Shown one piece after another: positions 34,389-43,495 of a DNA stretch of 64,000 nucleotides. Below the pieces are notes generated by a model. It had not been told where the DNA came from, did not search any database, and worked only from the letters and a program-made list of their open reading frames with translations. A program made the position numbers and the translations under genes. This stretch comes from Candidatus Latescibacterota bacterium. Lineage in GTDB: Bacteria > Latescibacterota > UBA2968 > GCA-2709665. Within the stretch, counting starts at the first letter, position 1. Each line of letters begins with the position of its first letter. Location: assembly GCA_965237675.1 (NCBI GenBank), contig OZ250150.1, forward strand, positions 736,001 through 800,000. The letters are read 5' to 3'.

Positions 34389-34937
34389 AGGTGGGTAGTT
34401 TCAGAATACGTTGGGGATCCCCGTCCGGCGACGCGAAACAGGAGGACTCGTGAATTGGGGGAACCGGCAATGGGTGAGACGTTTCTTGCCTTTCCAATAT
34501 GTTAGGATGTCTGCCTGGAAGGTATGTAGATTACACAACTGAACAGCTTTAAATATTCCCCCTTATCAAGGGTGGGCTTGGCGCGATAGACTCACAGATG
34601 GATCGAATAGCATCTCAGTCCGAAACTAAGGATTAATCACGGGGATTTACTGCTTGACCGGGCCGTAGCGCAACACTACACTTTCTTGCATACGCGAACG
34701 TCAGATTCAATTTATGCCATCGCCCCGGAACCACCTAATATCGCTATTGGCGGAACAAATCAGCGAGATCTGCCAACAATGGCGCAGGGGTGCCAAACGA
34801 AATATAGCGGAGGTGGATGCTTTGGTCAATTCAACATCACTGAACCATTAGGCGTGAAGAATCGATCGAAGACAGGGGAAATTACAGGAAGAAGTGCATC
34901 GACTACTGTAAAGCACATAACTGAATGGAGTGATCCA

Positions 34938-35621
34938 ATGCCTATCCAACACACACTCTGGACAATCGACAATCCGCCGGTGGAAGTCGAGACATCCAAG
35001 CTTGCCGATGAGAAACGGCTGGAGGATATGATTGAGTCCAAACTTAGTATCCTTTCAGACGATTGGATGCTGATTGGTCGACAGATAGAAACGGATACTG
35101 GTGGACGAGTCGATCTACTGGCCATTGCATCGGACGCATCTCTAGTGTTGATTGAATTGAAACGCAACAAAACCCCACGCGACGTGATTGCACAGACACT
35201 TGACTACGCCGTTTGGCTGAAAAAATTAGATCCTGAAGATGTAACCGAACTCTATGAAAGATACAATTCCGGCGCGTCGCTCAGTAAGGCCTTTCAAGAT
35301 CGATTTGAAAGGGTCCTCGACGACGACGAAGAGCCAATTAATCATACCCACCAACTCGTCGTGGTCGCGTCAACCCTCGATCCAAGCAGCGAACGCATTG
35401 TAACGTACCTCCAAGGCTGGGGCGTTCCCATCAACGTGCTCACCTTCGAAGTTTTCCGTCATGGCAATACGCAATTCCTCAGCCGGGCCTGGTTGCTACA
35501 ACCGCTGGATACTATGGAATCCGCCACCTCCGGTCCCCGCGAAAGGCTCGCGTGGAACAATGAGTTCTATGCTTGCTTCGGTCACGACGAAAATCGCGAT
35601 TGGGACGAGGCAGTAAAATAT
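34938..35621 (+). pseudogene. 5' half of a NucS/DUF91-like PD-(D/E)xK endonuclease gene interrupted by the transposon
   Basis: EKRLEDMI...IGRQI..DTGGRVDLLAI...LIELKR...AQTLDYA. The frame reaches ...WDEAVKY at the TSD TAAAATAT (35614-35621). Confidence 0.9.
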
Positions 35622-35685
35622 GGGAATTATAACCCAAAGTGCCAAAAAGCAAAGCTTGGAAAGAGAAATCGAATAAGAAATCTGC

Positions 35686-35874
35686 CTACGCCCCCCGATT
35701 CTTTAGCCACGCTTTCCACGCCTTTTTCGTTTCCTCCCCCTTGCCTGATTCCACCAACGGCGGATCATCGGGAAAGATCGCCCGGACCGCTTCCTCTATC
35801 TCCGCTTTGCTCGACTGATACTCACTCCCGACAGCCTTGACAACCGGTTTCTTCTTTGCGGTCTCGGAACCCAT
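35686..35874 (-). CDS. Small cargo protein (62 aa)
   Basis: AAGGA RBS; last gene of the cargo operon, 18 nt downstream of the relE-like gene. Confidence 0.55.
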   Translation of the reverse strand: MGSETAKKKPVVKAVGSEYQSSKAEIEEAVRAIFPDDPPLVESGKGEETKKAWKAWLKNRGA

Positions 35875-35892: not shown

Positions 35893-36228
35893 TTATTTCT
35901 TGTCGTACGCGCCTTGCCGATGGTCCATATCTACGACATAGATTTTCCCCGAAAAACGTTTGTAAAAAATCCGATAGGGCCTCTTTTCAATCCTAAACAT
36001 GGGATCATCAAAAGGTCGTCCTTGTATCTTTTTCGACCCCTTCAGGCTTAGAGGATTTTTGAGACTTTCAATTTTCTCGACGGCAGAACGCCTAACCCTC
36101 GGTTGCAAAGCATCCAAAAATCCCCGGACAGTATCCCGAATGACAATTTCTTGCTCTGCGGGTTCAGGTTGTCCTGTGCCTCCTGTCAGCAAAGGAGCCT
36201 TCCTGGAACCTCCACGTGCTTTATTCAC
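35893..36228 (-). CDS. RelE/ParE-family toxin-like protein
   Basis: FLDALQPRVRRSAVEKIESLKNP...SKKIQG...MFRIEKRPYRIFY...IYVVDMDHRQGAY. GTGA overlap with the upstream gene. Confidence 0.8.
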   Translation of the reverse strand: MNKARGGSRKAPLLTGGTGQPEPAEQEIVIRDTVRGFLDALQPRVRRSAVEKIESLKNPLSLKGSKKIQGRPFDDPMFRIEKRPYRIFYKRFSGKIYVVDMDHRQGAYDKK

Positions 36229-36431
36229 CGACTGTCCCTCTTGGCTTTCTTGAAATATCTCTGTGTCTCCTTAGTGGAAAGCATCCTGCTCTTTCCCGTC
36301 CGAAGTTCCTCATCAATTTCTAAAGACCGGGACAGAAACGGATCTTCCTCCTGTTCCACAATAACATCATCCTGACGAGCACCACCCCGCACCCGTGCAA
36401 TGAATCCAAACACAACATCTGTAACGCCCAT
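36225..36431 (-). CDS. Putative antitoxin (68 aa)
   Basis: AAGGAGG RBS before ATG 36431 (MGVTDVV...). Acidic middle and a C-terminal EELRTGKSRMLSTKE helix. Coupled to the RelE-like gene. Confidence 0.6.
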   Translation of the reverse strand: MGVTDVVFGFIARVRGGARQDDVIVEQEEDPFLSRSLEIDEELRTGKSRMLSTKETQRYFKKAKRDSR

Positions 36432-36457
36432 GACAACCCTCCTTGTCGTTCTCACTC

Positions 36458-36568
36458 TTATCGACACGGACAGCAACGAATATTCGCCAGAACAGCCAGG
36501 ACAATCATCGCGCCCATCATTGTAATCCACATTACGAGGACGATCTTATCTGCCCGGCCCTCTTTCAT
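36458..36568 (-). CDS. 36-aa single-TM micro-peptide with a Cys-rich tail (not in the ORF track)
   Basis: MKEGRADKIVLVMWITMMGAMIVLAVLANIRCCPCR*, with a purine-rich GAGGTAGGGAA stretch upstream. Confidence 0.45.
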   Translation of the reverse strand: MKEGRADKIVLVMWITMMGAMIVLAVLANIRCCPCR

Positions 36569-37759: not shown

Positions 37760-38104
37760 ATGAGCCAGGAGATACAAATGACCCAAGAATCCGAAGACGA
37801 AAAAATCGACCGGTTGTTTAAAGAACTTGGAACCCGCGTATACGCTGTCGAATGTATGATAGTAGGACTATGCCTACGTTTAGCGAGCACGCTTTCCGAA
37901 GACCCTAAAGCCGAAGTCGAAAAACTCAGAAACAATGCTCACCATATAATGAATCAATTTAACCTACTCCCCAATCTCTACGATTCAGAGTTTCATGGAA
38001 TTGCGGAGGCAAGATTGCATCTCCATGACCGTCTTACTCAGGTGAAGTCAAATATGGATGCTTTCCTCTCGCAACCCGCGCCTCAGACTCGGCACACACC
38101 TTGA
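37760..38104 (+). CDS. Hypothetical cargo protein
   Basis: 114-aa helical ORF 14 nt after the previous gene. An alternative start at the second Met follows AGGAG. Confidence 0.6.
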   Translation: MSQEIQMTQESEDEKIDRLFKELGTRVYAVECMIVGLCLRLASTLSEDPKAEVEKLRNNAHHIMNQFNLLPNLYDSEFHGIAEARLHLHDRLTQVKSNMDAFLSQPAPQTRHTP

Positions 38105-38225
38105 GGAACTCCTCCCTCGCCTCAAGATATGCCTCGTCGCTCGGATAATTTTCCGGTATAAATATGTCTGTATTCGGAATTCTCGGAATATCCTTTGCTA
38201 CTTCACTTGTTGGCCTCAAACTCAT
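38034..38225 (-). CDS. Small protein translationally coupled to the transposase
   Basis: Its ATG overlaps the transposase TGA (ATGA). Contains PENYPSDEAYLEAREEF. Confidence 0.5.
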   Translation of the reverse strand: MSLRPTSEVAKDIPRIPNTDIFIPENYPSDEAYLEAREEFLKVCAESEARVARGKHPYLTSPE

Positions 38226-39166
38226 GCCGTCAGTTCCTCATATTTAAGCCGCTTGCCGATCATGTCCCGGACGATCCACCCCATCTGGACAATCGTATCG
38301 GCCTCGCGGGCGTTGTGTCTTCCTGCAAACTCCGCAACGTACCGCCCAAGATGTTTTACGCTCAGCCGGTGATACGTTCCGTGATAACCCCTCTTGAGTA
38401 ACGCCCAGAAGGACTCCAAACCGTTCGTAGACGCTTGCCCGTCCACGTACTCCCCAGCACTGTGTTTCACCTGTTTGTGATGCACGCCGGACAAGCCTTG
38501 GTACGCAGTCGCTTCGTCCGTAAACACCTGCGCGCCCGGCGCAACCCTGTGATATACAAACTGCTTCAAAGTCTTACCGTCAACAGCCGCCGCAACCTCA
38601 GCGTCAATACGGCCCGTCTCCCGGTCTTTCGCCCCCACCACCGCCGTCTTGCCTACCGTACCACGTCCGGCGTGGAGTTTCTTTTTGGCATGTTTGTTCT
38701 TCTCTTTCCCGCCGATATACGTTTCATCTACCTCTACCGGCCCGGAGAAGAAATCGCCCTCATTCTCGAAAGCCTTGCGGATGCGGTGCGCCAGGTGCCA
38801 TGCGTTCTTCTGGGCGATGTCGAGATCCCGGTGTAACTTCATTGACGATACACCTTTGATGTTTGTGGTGAAAAGGTAGATCGCAATAAGCCAGTCATGG
38901 TATCCCAATTTGGAAGATTGCATGACCGTTCCAACACGGACGCTAAAACGCTTCCGGCAACCGTTACGTCGGCACCGCAAGGGCATGGACTTATGGGCCG
39001 TCCCGATCTGGATGTTGTCATAACCGCAATAAGGGCACCGGGGGCCTTCCGGCCAGCGGATGCGGGAGAAGAACACTTCCGCCGCTGCATCGTCGGGAAA
39101 CACCTTGAACAGTTTCTTGAGAGAAATCCCTTTTCTGTGATTTTTCCCCGGCCCCTTCGGTCCCAT
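38222..39166 (-). CDS. IS1595-family (ISXO2-like) DDE transposase
   Basis: Zn ribbon CPYC...CRRNGC, HTH SSMKLHRDLDI, VEVDETYIGG, VFTDE, V.HS..EYV, TNGLESFW, KHLGRYVAEF..RHN. Confidence 0.95.
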   Translation of the reverse strand: MGPKGPGKNHRKGISLKKLFKVFPDDAAAEVFFSRIRWPEGPRCPYCGYDNIQIGTAHKSMPLRCRRNGCRKRFSVRVGTVMQSSKLGYHDWLIAIYLFTTNIKGVSSMKLHRDLDIAQKNAWHLAHRIRKAFENEGDFFSGPVEVDETYIGGKEKNKHAKKKLHAGRGTVGKTAVVGAKDRETGRIDAEVAAAVDGKTLKQFVYHRVAPGAQVFTDEATAYQGLSGVHHKQVKHSAGEYVDGQASTNGLESFWALLKRGYHGTYHRLSVKHLGRYVAEFAGRHNAREADTIVQMGWIVRDMIGKRLKYEELTA

Positions 39167-39195
39167 CTCATCAACCCCCACAAAGGAGAACTACT

Positions 39196-39457: not shown

Positions 39458-39501
39458 CGAACATCACTCCTTTAAACTTGTATCGTCTTTGTTTACAATT
39501 A

Positions 39502-39530
39502 AATATAACGATTTTATTAAGGCTTGTCAA
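39502..39530 (-). promoter_or_regulatory. Sigma70-type promoter just inside the transposon end
   Basis: TTGACA-N17-TATATT on the minus strand, pointing towards the transposase. Confidence 0.75.
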
Positions 39531-39570
39531 GCTAATTCTTGGCACTTTGGGTTATAATTCCCTAAAATAT

Positions 39571-39975
39571 GGCTTCATTTCCGGTGGCGGAGGTAAGTGG
39601 TATAGTAGCTCGCTAAAAATGCTGGAGAAGGGTGCCCGTGTCTGGGTAAAGATTCCTGGCAAGGGGTTCGTGGGCGTAGCCCGAATTAAAGGGTCAAGGC
39701 AATCAGCTACGGAGTTTAAGCTTGATGACGGACGTCCAGCGCTTGAAGTGTTGCAGGCGAAACACCACCGCGATGTCGGAGACGACCCCGAATTGATGGA
39801 ATACTTCGTGCCGGTCAAATGGCTCGATACTGTTTCAGTTGGCAAAGCCGTTCGGGAGCCTGGTATGTTTGGCAACCAGAACACTGTCTGTAAACCCAAA
39901 TCGAAAAAATGGCAGCCAACAATCGATAAATTGAAAGACGTTTTCAGAAAGTTTGACGACGAGTTTGAAATGTAA
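39571..39975 (+). pseudogene. 3' half of the interrupted endonuclease (EVE/PUA-like domain)
   Basis: After the second TSD the frame continues GFISGGGGKWYSSSLKMLEKGARVWVKIPGKGFVGVARI...GNQNTVCK. It joins in frame to give 362 aa. Confidence 0.9.
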
Positions 39976-40811
39976 CATTTCGTAGGAGCCTGTCGAAATC
40001 CCTCAGGCAGACACTCACGTCATATTATATATAATGGAATTTCGTAACTTTATATCGATATTTAGTATATCGACGCCTACGACGGGAGGTCCTCCGAAGG
40101 GCTCCTGGTCAACGGCACCGAAATTGCATACATCGATCTCCAAGACAAACTGGTACCCGCGTTCATCGGTTCGTCATTCACAACCTTGTAGATTGGTGCA
40201 AGTCAAACAAACACGCAATGATAAATGCCTGATAGTATTAAAATTCCACTTGTGATATCGATAGATTTATCGATACTATTTACTGCAAAGGAAAACGAAT
40301 CTGCAACGAAGTTCTGGCACGAGCGATATTTACATGGGTCAGATCCAAAGATTCCTGAAAAGAGCCGTGCGTGGGTTTTTGCTGTTTCTGGGTTTTCAAG
40401 TGCCCTGTAAAGTATACGAAATGGTCGAATTGTGATATTCGTAGTGCAGTCTGCATTATGCGTGTTCGGTGGACGTGTTGTGGATGTTCTGCCATGGCGG
40501 GGGGCGAGGTTTAAGGTGGCGCAACTGAGAATAATTGCCCAAATTGAGCAAACGGAATCCACGCCCCAATAGGAATTACACATTCGCCGCCACGGACCTA
40601 ATGGTGCTGAAAATGAGATTTGGCAAATGCCCTCGGTAGCTACGCTGCACGTCTAACCGATACCCATTGCGGGGAATCGAGGCAATGGGACGCGAACGCA
40701 TTGCGGTTCCTTCTGACGGAGCCGAATCGATGAGCGGACCTGTATCCGTTATGCGATCGAATTCAGCGAAATGTCCGTGTTAGTTGACAGCTACTGGAGA
40801 GAGCCGTTAAG

Positions 40812-41513
40812 ATGCGAATCGAGCCGGAAATCAGTGGCGTAACTGTCGTCTTACTAGGCGATTTCAACCCGGCAATTTTCACACCGGCATGGTTCGCACT
40901 GCACGGCCTCCTCCCCGAAAGCGTCGTCGAGGACGCCGACTTGCAGATCGCCCACCCGCATGTGACGCAATTCGCGGCCGACTGGCTTCGCCTGCACGTC
41001 ACGGCCGCTCGTTTTCTCGTCGAGACCTTGCAGTCACCACACGTTCGCCTGCGCGACCTCGTCGCACGGACATTCAAGGAGTACCTGCACCATACGCCCG
41101 TTAGGGCGTTTGGAATCAACCGTGACGTTCATTTCCGGGTGAAGAGTTTCGCGGAACGGGATCGAATTGGCAGGATACTGGCGCCCGTTAAACCTTGGGG
41201 GACTTGGGGGCACGCTCTCGGACTGGATGGCGAGAATAATGGTATGAGGTCGCTAACGATGTCGCAAATGGACCCCGGGGGAAGGCCATCCGGGGGTAAA
41301 ATCAACATTACGATCCAGCCGTCCAATAAAATTGACAAGGCTCGACCTGGTGTCTACGTGGGAGTCAACGATCACTATGCTATCGAGGATTCCGAGTTGG
41401 AAACGGCCAAACATTTGATGGATCTATTCGATGGCAATTTTGAGACCTCTCTTCAGCGTAGCGACGGCATTATTGACCACATCATGTCCTTAGCAGAGAA
41501 AGAGGAGAAATAG
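40812..41513 (+). CDS. Conserved hypothetical protein (TIGR04255-like?), gene 1 of a three-gene operon
   Basis: VVLLGDFNPAIFTPAWF...HTPVRAFGINRDVHF...VYVGVNDHY. The family assignment is tentative. Confidence 0.75.
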   Translation: MRIEPEISGVTVVLLGDFNPAIFTPAWFALHGLLPESVVEDADLQIAHPHVTQFAADWLRLHVTAARFLVETLQSPHVRLRDLVARTFKEYLHHTPVRAFGINRDVHFRVKSFAERDRIGRILAPVKPWGTWGHALGLDGENNGMRSLTMSQMDPGGRPSGGKINITIQPSNKIDKARPGVYVGVNDHYAIEDSELETAKHLMDLFDGNFETSLQRSDGIIDHIMSLAEKEEK

Positions 41514-41516
41514 CTC

Positions 41517-42122
41517 ATGTTGCCTGCGGCTCGATCCACAGCGATCCAACACGCCAATTGGCATGAAGGCCTGACTGATATTGATGAAGATGCCGTGAGT
41601 CAAAGCGTCGTCCCGAATGCGCACCAAGCCATCCGCTCCGCCGTAGAGCAAAGCACGAACTCAGCGACAACAAGCGTCAATGCCCAAGATCCGGAAGCGG
41701 TGACGATGCCACTATTTAACAATCGTGAACAGGCCGGCGATCTACTCTCCGGTATAGTTTTGCTGCTCGAACCGCAAGAACACCGTCCTGCGCCTGTGAC
41801 CTTCCACGCCTTACAAGAATGGGAAGGCTACGTCACTGAGATTAAGGAAACGGAGTTCACAGCACGCCTGACCGACCTGACGTCCGGGGCGAATTATGCG
41901 AGCGAAGAAGCGAATATACCGCTGGACGAAATATCTGAAGACGACGCGGCCAAGATGCAGGTCGGTAGCATCTTCCGCTGGGTAATCGGCTACGAGCGCA
42001 GGGGGGGTTCGAAAAAGCGGGTTTCCCAGATCGTGTTGCGCGACCTTCCCATGATCACGAAGTCCGACCTGCGAGATGGGCGGGAATGGGCACATAGTAT
42101 CGTAGCGACTTTCCAGCAATGA
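41517..42122 (+). CDS. Hypothetical protein with a low-complexity N-terminus and a beta-rich C-terminal domain, gene 2
   Basis: LQEWEGYVTEI...FTARLTDL...EEANIPLDEISEDD...VGSIFRWVIGY. Starts 3 nt after gene 1. Confidence 0.75.
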   Translation: MLPAARSTAIQHANWHEGLTDIDEDAVSQSVVPNAHQAIRSAVEQSTNSATTSVNAQDPEAVTMPLFNNREQAGDLLSGIVLLLEPQEHRPAPVTFHALQEWEGYVTEIKETEFTARLTDLTSGANYASEEANIPLDEISEDDAAKMQVGSIFRWVIGYERRGGSKKRVSQIVLRDLPMITKSDLRDGREWAHSIVATFQQ

Positions 42123-43213
42123 CGGATGCCGCCACATCGTTAGACCGGCCGGGTGAGGACGAGATTGAGGTTGTTTTACTTGGACCCGGTTATGGCGAAA
42201 GCATCGTCCTGCATACAGGCCATGGTAGTTGGGTGATCGTTGATTCCTGCATCAACACCGAAGGAAAACCACGCGCGCTAGAGTACTTAGACAGCATTGG
42301 TGTCAACGCGGGGCAACAGGTTGATTTGGTTGTAGCGACGCACTGGCACGACGATCATATACGTGGGATGGCAACCCTCGTCGAGGTCTGCAGCAGGGCT
42401 GACTTCTGTTGTGCAAACACACTCCTCAACAAGGAGATTCTCGCAGCCATCGACGCTTTGGAGGCACGTCACCTAACCGTGGAAGGTTCAGGCGTTCGAG
42501 AAATCTACCACATTCTTAAATGGCTTCAGTCGAAGTCGTTTCGACCGAAGTTTGCGTCGGCCAATCGAAAGATTCATTCACAAGGCAAGTGTGAAATCTG
42601 GTCTTTGTCGCCGAGTGACGCCGCGTTTCAGAGTTTTCTGCAAACGGTCGGCGCTCTATTCCCCAGAGAAGGTGAGACGAAGACCCGGATTCCATCCATT
42701 TCCCCGAACGATTTTTCCGTCGTCCTGTGGATCGATATTGACGATGTTGTCGTCCTGTTAGGATCGGATCTGGAAAGAAATGGATGGATTGAAATACTGA
42801 ATAGCAGGGAACGTCCGAAAGAGAAAGTGTCGGTATTTAAGGTTCCACACCACGGATCAGAGGGCGCGGATGAACCGAAGGTGTGGAAGAGTATGCTTGC
42901 GTCAGATCCGTACGCACTCCTCGCACCGTGGCGTAGAGGCAACCGCACCTTACCCAGCCAAAAGGATGTACAGAGGATACTTTCTTATACTCCAAACGCC
43001 TATGCGAGCGCGAAAGGGGATCGGACTGCTCGTTCTCCCAGATACGCCAATCGTGCGGTTGCCCGAACTATCCGAAGTACCGGAATCAAGCTTCGAGAGT
43101 TGGATATGTCGCCAGGCGCGATTCGCCTGCGGCGACCTATCAATTCGAGTAAACGCTGGCAGGTCGAGACGTTCGGAGCCGCCTGCCATCTCGAAGACTT
43201 TGCGGTTGAGTGA
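42119..43213 (+). CDS. Metallo-beta-lactamase-fold hydrolase (ComEC/Rec2-like nuclease), gene 3
   Basis: GYGESIVL, IVDSC, THWHDDHIRG (HxHxDH), NDFSVVL, LLGSD, KVPHHGS. ATGA overlap with gene 2; no TM segments. Confidence 0.9.
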   Translation: MTDAATSLDRPGEDEIEVVLLGPGYGESIVLHTGHGSWVIVDSCINTEGKPRALEYLDSIGVNAGQQVDLVVATHWHDDHIRGMATLVEVCSRADFCCANTLLNKEILAAIDALEARHLTVEGSGVREIYHILKWLQSKSFRPKFASANRKIHSQGKCEIWSLSPSDAAFQSFLQTVGALFPREGETKTRIPSISPNDFSVVLWIDIDDVVVLLGSDLERNGWIEILNSRERPKEKVSVFKVPHHGSEGADEPKVWKSMLASDPYALLAPWRRGNRTLPSQKDVQRILSYTPNAYASAKGDRTARSPRYANRAVARTIRSTGIKLRELDMSPGAIRLRRPINSSKRWQVETFGAACHLEDFAVE

Positions 43214-43460: not shown

Positions 43461-43495
43461 AAAAACAGCCGATCTCCTTTGGATCGGCCTTTTTT
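43461..43495. terminator. Bidirectional intrinsic terminator
   Basis: AAAAACA-GCCGATC-TCCTTTG-GATCGGC-CTTTTTT between convergent genes. Confidence 0.8.

Follow-up and report, generated by a model that had tools for sequence, protein, structure and literature searches.

A conserved, mobile three-gene module pairing a predicted ComEC-type metallo-β-lactamase-fold hydrolase with two orphan proteins, probably a nuclease-based defense or addiction system

Three tightly coupled genes in a low-GC island

The 64,000-nt stretch of DNA analyzed here (hereafter, the window) derives from a Candidatus Latescibacterota bacterium (assembly GCA_965237675.1, contig OZ250150.1, positions 736,001 to 800,000 of the forward strand). 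It carries three tightly coupled genes, referred to below as genes 1, 2 and 3 or as the trio, which an earlier note on this DNA had proposed to form an undescribed defense or toxin-antitoxin-chaperone (TAC)-like system:

40812-41513, forward strand: gene 1, open reading frame (ORF) of 233 amino acids (aa)
41517-42122, forward strand: gene 2, ORF of 201 aa
42119-43213, forward strand: gene 3, ORF of 364 aa

Re-reading the coordinates and junctions reproduced exactly the coupling described in the note: the TAG stop codon of gene 1 (41511-41513) is followed by the trinucleotide 'ctc' and the ATG of gene 2 at position 41517, leaving a 3-nt gap, and genes 2 and 3 have an ATGA in common (42119-42122). 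The lower-GC island in which the trio had been placed was likewise recovered, with a GC content of 0.44-0.55 across ~34.5-43.5 kb, trio included, as compared to 0.60-0.65 in the flanks. Gene 1 has no match in Pfam, NCBIfam, PADLOC v2 or PHROG, and gene 2 belongs to no family in the first three, in line with the note's statement that the trio is not a recognized named system; a lexical full-text search of the open-access literature returned no description of it.

The trio is an obligate unit that crosses phyla

An alignment search with gene 1 against one-genome-per-species contigs yielded 142 relatives, the best 80 of which were followed up as genome loci (L001-L080). In every one of these 80 loci, genes 2 and 3 were found by tblastn directly downstream of gene 1 and in the same order. 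For a more divergent branch, nine of the most divergent gene 1 relatives among those listed led to 390 metagenome stretches, of which 80 were kept and the 43 that extend 1900 nt or more beyond gene 1 on its downstream side were judged; although their gene 1 is only 32-49% identical to that of the window, genes 2 and 3 again followed in order in 43/43, and no swap of the effector was seen, gene 3 never being replaced in these loci. The gene order that the note had treated as that of a single system is thus conserved across genomes, well in excess of what chance would produce. The trio also occurs in 1-2-3 order on one IMG/VR contig and on a 117-kb plasmid of the cultured Adhaeribacter swui KCTC 52873, where RefSeq labels the products as two 'hypothetical protein' entries and an 'MBL fold metallo-hydrolase'. 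When the proteins were compared pair by pair across the window and 91 complete loci, the identities of all three correlated with r = 0.88-0.89, a value reached in none of 999 permutations, which shows that they are inherited together as one unit. The trio is therefore an obligate, strictly conserved and mobile three-gene module. Its families are large: a collection clustered at 90% identity holds 706 homologs of gene 1, 897 of gene 2 and 2168 of gene 3, and a gene 1 profile retrieved 2317 representatives (50% identity) at E ≤ 1e-3.

Within the window's phylum, the trio is present in 27 of 168 genomes, and it occurs in 3 of 14 other genomes of the window's genus; the window's own genome holds one copy. 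To follow its descent, gene 1 plus gene 3 of the window and of 60 loci were placed in a tree, after removal of 20 loci with short or interrupted matches. With the caveat of mis-binning, as nearly all 80 genome-locus records are metagenome-assembled genomes, this tree implied at least 23 phylum changes (as compared to a minimum of 9) and contained well-supported, short-branched sister pairs from different phyla, for instance L001 and L006. Gene 1 is 52-77% identical across L001-L080, whose hosts include Latescibacterota, Gemmatimonadota, Acidobacteriota, Ca. Entotheonella, Ca. Binatia, Alpha- and Gammaproteobacteria, Spirochaetia, Nitrospirales and Dehalococcoidia. We take this mix of taxa to be typical of one host-associated marine community type, which would fit transfer within a habitat. 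The trio is almost absent from viral collections: a single relative turned up among 38 IMG/VR pattern matches and none in 50,697 phage records. It is accessory, patchy, horizontally mobile and crosses phyla.

Several copies are decayed. In L012 (8754-9707), gene 3 is interrupted by the gene of an IS1595-family transposase; in L007 (8272-11055), the N-terminal ~120 residues of gene 3 run in frame into a remnant of an HmaB methylase; and the trio of L076 is truncated or fused.

Gene 3 is a predicted soluble ComEC-type hydrolase

By its sequence, gene 3 is a soluble ComEC-type metallo-β-lactamase (MBL)-fold hydrolase. It matches Pfam Lactamase_B (E = 3.1e-6), and its nearest solved relatives by sequence are the MBL domains of ComEC (9ic4_A, 1.3e-4; 30bt_A, 1.3e-3). 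The intact metal ligands reported in the note are present as THWHDDH (74-80), GSD (215-217) and HHGS (244-247), and in 30 homologs residues H75, H77, D78, D79, H80, D217, H244 and H245 are invariant, as are several arginines in a conserved C-terminal extension (residues 260-364) of net charge +10. Approximately 40 extra residues separate ComEC-aligned blocks. The absence of ComEC membrane segments, also claimed in the note, was confirmed: no Competence-domain match was obtained, no membrane segment was found at a maximum Kyte-Doolittle 19-residue score of 1.49, and the NCBIfam ComEC model TIGR00361 aligned over its C-terminal MBL part only (27 bits versus a cut-off of 190).

Within PADLOC, gene 3 matched the LmuA-labeled MBL model (3e-16), the reverse transcriptase (RT)-associated MBL model RTasMBL (6e-15) and Avs1a (1.3e-4), which supports its reading as a defense-type MBL. 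A match to PHROG 28593 (E = 1.7e-33, function unknown) and a weak one to a phage tail-protein PHROG (2.3e-8) indicate that related MBL proteins exist in phage genomes.

ComEC combines an OB (oligonucleotide/oligosaccharide-binding) fold, a membrane channel and an MBL domain, and the trio resembles ComEC/Rec2 in its MBL domain as well as in the pairing of an MBL nuclease with an OB-like fold, predicted for gene 2 (see below). In contrast to ComEC/Rec2, however, the trio lacks a membrane competence domain, distributes these parts over separate proteins and is mobile and patchy.

Genes 1 and 2 are orphan proteins, with gene 2 predicted to bridge genes 1 and 3

The AlphaFold2 (AF2) model of gene 1 (mean predicted local distance difference test score, pLDDT, 82.5; predicted template-modeling score 0.80) is alpha+beta, in agreement with the alpha/beta protein announced in the note, and resembles duplicated alpha+beta folds of the TATA-binding protein (TBP) kind. 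Its best fold match was to the McsB/phosphagen-kinase domain (Z = 8.2; 165 residues aligned; root-mean-square deviation 4.1), followed by AdoMetDC, TBP and RepD and, for the C-terminal half, SRPBCC proteins. In a viral structure library, the top hit was an unnamed protein (E = 8e-10; template-modeling scores 0.61/0.68), and giant-virus TATA-binding proteins came next. A sequence-profile search against PDB sequences gave nothing below E = 0.5. Four histidines and several serines and aspartates of gene 1 are invariant.

The note had further, tentatively, likened gene 1 to TIGR04255. This did not stand, as none of 30 close relatives matched that model at E ≤ 10 and none of 30 divergent relatives at E ≤ 1; the sole lead in this direction was an ESM-Atlas cluster with the automatic name 'TIGR04255 family protein' (cosine 0.97). 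Nor was a chaperone role borne out: no signature of a chaperone, SecB-like or otherwise, was detected in gene 1, and its fold matches are TBP-, AdoMetDC- or phosphagen-kinase-like; SecB is absent among the fold matches listed, although that absence is not decisive. We consider gene 1 a candidate sensor or regulator subunit.

Gene 2 consists of a variable N-terminus (~1-90) and a strongly conserved C-domain (~93-201) with the invariant motifs HALQEWEGYV, FRWVIGYER and RVSxIVFRDLP, and has a net charge of -13. Disorder of the N-terminus, as posited in the note, is supported by pLDDT values below 50 at residues 1-36 and 45-84 of the AF2 model, whereas the Ser/Thr/Ala/Gln richness invoked alongside it is modest (37% of residues 1-90 versus 28% elsewhere). 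The compact beta-rich C-domain was recovered as a confident five-strand barrel plus helix (~90-200) that matches OB, cold-shock and EF-P-type barrels with Z ≤ 7.0. At Z = 8.2 for gene 1 and 7.0 for gene 2, these fold matches assign no function, because such values are common for models without true relatives. Foldseek found no match of the gene 2 model in the PDB at E ≤ 1e-3, and a profile search found none to PDB sequences.

Two lines of evidence suggest a physical link between the proteins. First, a natural protein of 438 aa (P0362) consists of gene 1, a low-complexity linker and the gene 2 C-domain (53% identity, E = 8e-41), so that the disordered part of gene 2 serves as the linker of a gene1-gene2 fusion; it is one such fusion among 150 representatives listed. 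Second, a complex of all three chains, modeled with gene 2 scored as the partner, reached an interface score (ipSAE, interaction prediction score from aligned errors) of 0.75 as compared to 0.44 for the best control, the mark applied being one that 116 of 157 solved complexes attain, as do 2 of 215 mismatched pairs. Runs agreed in at least 78% of contacts, with a partner pLDDT of at least 62, and the model supports binding. In it, gene 2 contacts both genes 1 and 3 and would bridge them; the best-scoring control was the one with gene 3 replaced, which fits gene 2 also binding gene 1. The predicted interface on gene 3 comprises residues 103-145, 182-192 and 307-329, plus Y25, D78 and R82 near the metal site, and strand 320-329 pairs with residues 130-135 of gene 2. 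Residues 51-54 of gene 2, including the nearly invariant T52, also lie in the modeled interface, the contacted chain being unspecified in the output.

Given the opposite charges of gene 2 (-13) and the gene 3 extension (+10), the complex model and the fusion, we propose gene 2 to be a bridging adaptor and inhibitor that would remain bound to gene 3. Of the antitoxin role assigned to gene 2 in the note, this bound regulator or inhibitor function fits the data, while no known antitoxin domain was found. The accompanying analogy to TAC systems fared less well. These feature a type II antitoxin with a chaperone-addiction segment and a HigB-, MqsR- or HicA-type toxin, and the trio resembles them in having three small genes transcribed together, a disordered segment in one of them and a putatively toxic enzyme kept bound by its partners. 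Yet Pfam, NCBIfam, PADLOC and fold comparison revealed neither a HigA-, MqsA- or HicB-type antitoxin nor a known TAC toxin family, the disordered stretch lies at the N-terminus of gene 2, and gene 3 encodes an MBL rather than a known TAC toxin.

The trio recurs as cargo of BREX-related loci

In 33 of the 80 genome loci, the trio is nested among Hma-type, DUF499-centered components related to bacteriophage exclusion (BREX) systems. Across all 80 loci, HmaC was counted 25 times, DUF7680 31 times (intact or as a remnant upstream of gene 1), HmaB 25 times and HmaA 16 times, and Hma-type genes flanked the trio on both sides in 23 loci by a script criterion that counts remnants. The order was constant: DUF499 ATPase, DUF7680, trio, DUF1156 methylase, PLD-SNF2 helicase. 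These host systems correspond to the 'Type-2 BR' systems of PMC12839542, whose main text contains neither 'MBL' nor 'lactamase' as a whole word. A survey of the slot between the DUF7680 and DUF1156 methylase genes in L016, L019, L030 and L049 revealed other occupants, namely Septu PtuAB, a GmrSD_N/NsnA-like gene, a SLOG (LD_cluster2) gene paired with ThsB-TIR, AAA_15/AAA_21 with DUF3226, and AAA_14-DUF4143. Since its occupants vary between loci, the slot looks like a cargo hotspot for stacked defense modules.

The window itself retains a trace of this arrangement immediately upstream of gene 1:

40516-40683, forward strand: DUF7680 remnant (matching residues 1-57 of the L008 DUF7680 protein by tblastn; 46% identity, E = 2.6e-8)

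On account of this remnant, the window copy appears to descend from a nested arrangement. No match to HmaA, HmaB or HmaC better than E ~1 was found in the window, and the trio proteins match no core Hma model of PADLOC. Elsewhere in the window's genome, a DUF499-family ATPase in a 1112-aa open frame (G000:C1:1804924-1806117, L163) possibly belongs to a separate Hma/BREX-related system.

The nesting raises the alternative that the trio is an accessory or back-up effector of the DUF499-centered systems, co-transcribed with them and fired by their ATPase or helicase. Where Hma components are present, the trio always shares their strand and is placed after HmaC/DUF7680 and before the HmaB methylase, with gaps of 1-13 nt to DUF7680 in L030, L060, L062, L070 and L078 and with overlaps to HmaB in L009, L048 and L049; the window keeps its DUF7680 remnant; and auxiliary or back-up nucleases embedded in such loci are described in PMC12839542. 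On the other hand, most trio copies have no such system nearby: 47 of the 80 genome loci lack any Hma component, as do all 80 loci of the divergent branch and the surroundings of the A. swui plasmid trio. The only DUF499 gene of the window's genome lies ~1.03 Mb from the trio, the window lacks the core set of these systems (DUF499 ATPase, N6-methylase, HKD(PLD)-Swi2/Snf2 helicase), and none of the three genes is a core component. Moreover, the trio tree requires at least 13 changes in Hma association, and unrelated but complete systems, Septu among them, occupy the same slot, which suggests a hotspot rather than dependence. We regard such an accessory role in the BREX-related systems as improbable.

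In the divergent branch, 9 of 38 neighbors in 6 of 10 long loci matched PADLOC models at E ≤ 1e-8, including BrxA (8e-70), BrxB (4.5e-69) and a SIR2-like protein associated with prokaryotic Argonaute (pAgo; 2.5e-17). L151 and L153 are not independent, as they look like near-copies.

A proposed nuclease module held in check by its partners

As the trio travels between many bacterial groups and is often located in anti-virus gene clusters, it is probably a defense or addiction module. Our preferred reading, to which we assign a probability of about one half, is that of a self-contained mobile nuclease module that most likely serves anti-phage or anti-plasmid defense with toxin-antitoxin-like logic. 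The trio is probably a defense/addiction system without a name so far, based on a nuclease, and a regulatory variant of a known effector kind. In mechanistic terms, gene 3 is the proposed effector: a ComEC-type DNase, probably dependent on Zn, that would belong to one broad class with the MBL pro-nucleases of Hachiman, AVAST, Lamassu and DRT. The gene 2 barrel would clamp the inserted segments and the basic C-terminal extension of gene 3, covering its DNA-binding face, and would at the same time bind gene 1, leaving the three proteins at rest in an inactive 1-2-3 complex. The candidate sensor would be gene 1 with its TBP-like fold, and the trigger that frees gene 3 for DNA degradation may be the loss or rearrangement of gene 2 or the binding of a phage factor to gene 1 or 2. 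The DNase activity, the inhibition by gene 2, the trigger and the protective phenotype are what we infer; the broad roles that the note had given to genes 2 and 3, antitoxin and nuclease effector, survive as proposals.

The closest precedent is that of gated MBL pro-nucleases. Only recently were these shown to serve several bacterial immune systems as a common death effector, in every case with licensing by a protease. A protease-MBL pair is described as repeatedly acquired by Hachiman, AVAST, Lamassu and DRT, and the protease-associated MBL as a zymogen in which cutting of two linkers exposes a Zn-dependent double-stranded DNA nuclease (Tuck et al., PMC12799240; Evans et al., bioRxiv 10.1101/2025.11.14.688446); in the set of Evans et al., 15 MBLs are given without an associated protease. 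Gated modules of this kind feature two insertions that block the active site, each bearing a conserved cleavage-site isoleucine; in gene 3, the one pointer in this direction is its ~40 extra residues between ComEC-aligned blocks. Like these proteins (HamM, the Avs1/2/4 partners, those of Lamassu and DRT and the caspase-nuclease 'canu'), gene 3 is a stand-alone ComEC-like MBL of ~360-370 aa with an HxHxDH metal site, sits beside a regulator gene and is recurrently carried into unrelated defense loci. Unlike them, the trio contains no protease gene recognizable in Pfam, NCBIfam or PADLOC at E ≤ 0.01, its partners being genes 1 and 2, and has no fused STAND, Hachiman or RT sensor; control is predicted to operate by stoichiometric binding instead of cleavage. 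Avs1a-type MBLs were found in 0/168 genomes of the phylum at 1e-20. As to Lamassu, no SMC-type gene adjoins the window trio, and the recurrent neighbors in the 80 loci, as far as these were scanned, are Hma rather than LmuB. The PADLOC candidate PDC-M48 was rejected, as it needs both of its components, while the match of gene 3 to PDC-M48B is weak (7.6e-7 to 9e-4) and no PADLOC model fits genes 1 and 2.

A number of observations weigh against a gated defense nuclease. Regarding its parts, every NCBIfam match of gene 3 falls far below its cut-off (Avs1a, 22 versus 420 bits), and the 6A-MBL system was rejected on the same grounds (25 versus 220 bits). For genes 1 and 2, the fold matches are of middling strength, and the OB-like fold predicted for gene 2 could equally mean nucleic-acid binding instead of inhibition. 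The lone gene1-gene2 fusion could be an assembly or read-through artifact, the complex was folded as three chains with custom unpaired alignments, unlike the calibration set of its score, and the co-divergence of the trio follows from co-inheritance alone and is by itself no proof of binding. Regarding genomic context, 79 of 150 selected nearest-neighbor representatives of the 47 loci without Hma were scanned: 4 of 70 neighbors from 18 loci matched PADLOC at E ≤ 1e-10, as did 2 of 9 in a separate set, giving 6/79, and several loci are flanked by ordinary housekeeping genes, such as those for acetate kinase and M17 peptidase. All defense-neighbor figures are raw counts without a background rate. 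The defense-island context anticipated for the trio is thus only partial, being strong for the 33/80 loci nested in Hma/BREX-related systems and weak among the neighbors scanned elsewhere.

The numerous loci without known defense neighbors would also suit a purely selfish addiction cassette, in which a DNase toxin encoded by gene 3 is neutralized by genes 1 and 2 and the cassette stabilizes mobile DNA but plays no part against phages. The tightly overlapping genes, the small acidic partner predicted to bind the nuclease, the plasmid copy, the location in insertion sequence (IS)-rich low-GC islands and the decayed copies L012, L007 and L076 are all compatible with this scenario. However, three components kept to ~30% identity exceed the needs of a minimal toxin-antitoxin pair, and the trio is found repeatedly in defense cargo slots, beside BREX and pAgo genes. 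We judge pure selfishness to be about as unlikely as an accessory role in BREX-related systems, although it overlaps with the preferred reading, since many toxin-antitoxin modules are abortive-infection systems.

Considerably less plausible is a housekeeping or niche complex for nucleic-acid processing, e.g., in DNA uptake, repair or RNA maturation, akin to the soluble parts of ComEC. The ComEC MBL domains as best solved relatives of gene 3, the OB-like barrel of gene 2 and the housekeeping flanks of some loci point in this direction; against it speak the patchy presence even within the window's phylum, the sister copies that cross phyla, the low-GC islands, IS insertions and decayed copies, and the occurrence as one copy per genome with no conserved housekeeping partner. 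Least likely of all, and in our view very improbable, is a protease-gated pro-nuclease of the HamM/Avs-MBL kind in which gene 1 or 2 is an unrecognized protease cleaving gene 3: the PADLOC models matched by gene 3 are those of protease-associated MBLs, its size resembles that of HamM (364 aa versus ~42 kDa), and its ~40 extra residues and the invariant His and Ser/Asp residues of gene 1 would be compatible with such a scheme, but genes 1 and 2 belong to no protease family in Pfam, NCBIfam or PADLOC, and their listed fold matches include no trypsin, caspase or subtilisin, an absence that is not decisive.

A bolder form of the mobile defense nuclease, which we put forward only tentatively, is that of a new widespread immune module in which an MBL DNase would be gated by a TBP-fold sensor and an acidic OB-like clamp, with no protease, across more than ten phyla and preferentially as a second layer in BREX-related systems. 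If true, an MBL effector under the control of two unknown families would represent a second regulatory solution, two sizeable orphan families would gain a role (gene 1 alone comprises >2,300 clusters at 50% identity), and BREX-related loci would be shown to possess a defined slot in which independent defense modules accumulate as cargo. The plasmid copy in A. swui, a cultured and harmless soil bacterium, makes the idea directly testable.

Other features of the low-GC island

The remainder of the island and the region downstream of gene 3 contain the following features:

34686-35840, forward strand: NucS_C-like ORF, 384 aa (sub-threshold match, 1e-4; 22.8 bits versus a cut-off of 24)
35893-36228, reverse strand: ParE-toxin-like ORF, 111 aa (weak ParE match, 7e-3)
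36225-36530, reverse strand: ORF of 101 aa
36864-37745, forward strand: ORF of 293 aa containing a hydrophobic stretch at its N-terminus and a segment rich in Glu, Lys and Ala; no family in Pfam or PADLOC
37760-38104, forward strand: ORF of 114 aa adjoining the 293-aa ORF; no Pfam or PADLOC family
38222-39181, reverse strand: IS1595 transposase, in the same low-GC island as the trio
39478-39975, forward strand: C-terminal fragment of PDC-S11, 165 aa (PADLOC; profile positions 226-355 of 358, E = 2.7e-47)
43467-43489, no strand assigned: terminator-like hairpin with T-runs on both strands (consensus scan), between gene 3 and a convergent yeiH-type gene

The note had placed a restriction-like nuclease and a transposon next to the trio; the neighbors found here are the IS1595 transposase, the PDC-S11 fragment and the weakly NucS_C-like ORF. 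Housekeeping genes, including one for a YeiH-type membrane protein, border the island. The hairpin downstream of gene 3 is weak evidence for a terminator, because the number of promoter and terminator sites found by the consensus scan in the region was not above the shuffled expectation. An Rfam scan of 34-44 kb and a tRNA search of the whole window found nothing, so that neither an RNA component nor a tRNA integration site is indicated. The ORF at 39478-39975 resembles a truncated defense-candidate gene beside the IS1595 element; the N-terminal part of PDC-S11 was not found in the adjoining ORFs, and no PDC-S11-like neighbor occurred in the 80 genome loci of the trio. Finally, the 111-aa ParE-like ORF overlaps the stop codon of the 101-aa ORF, and the two may constitute a toxin-antitoxin pair within the island.

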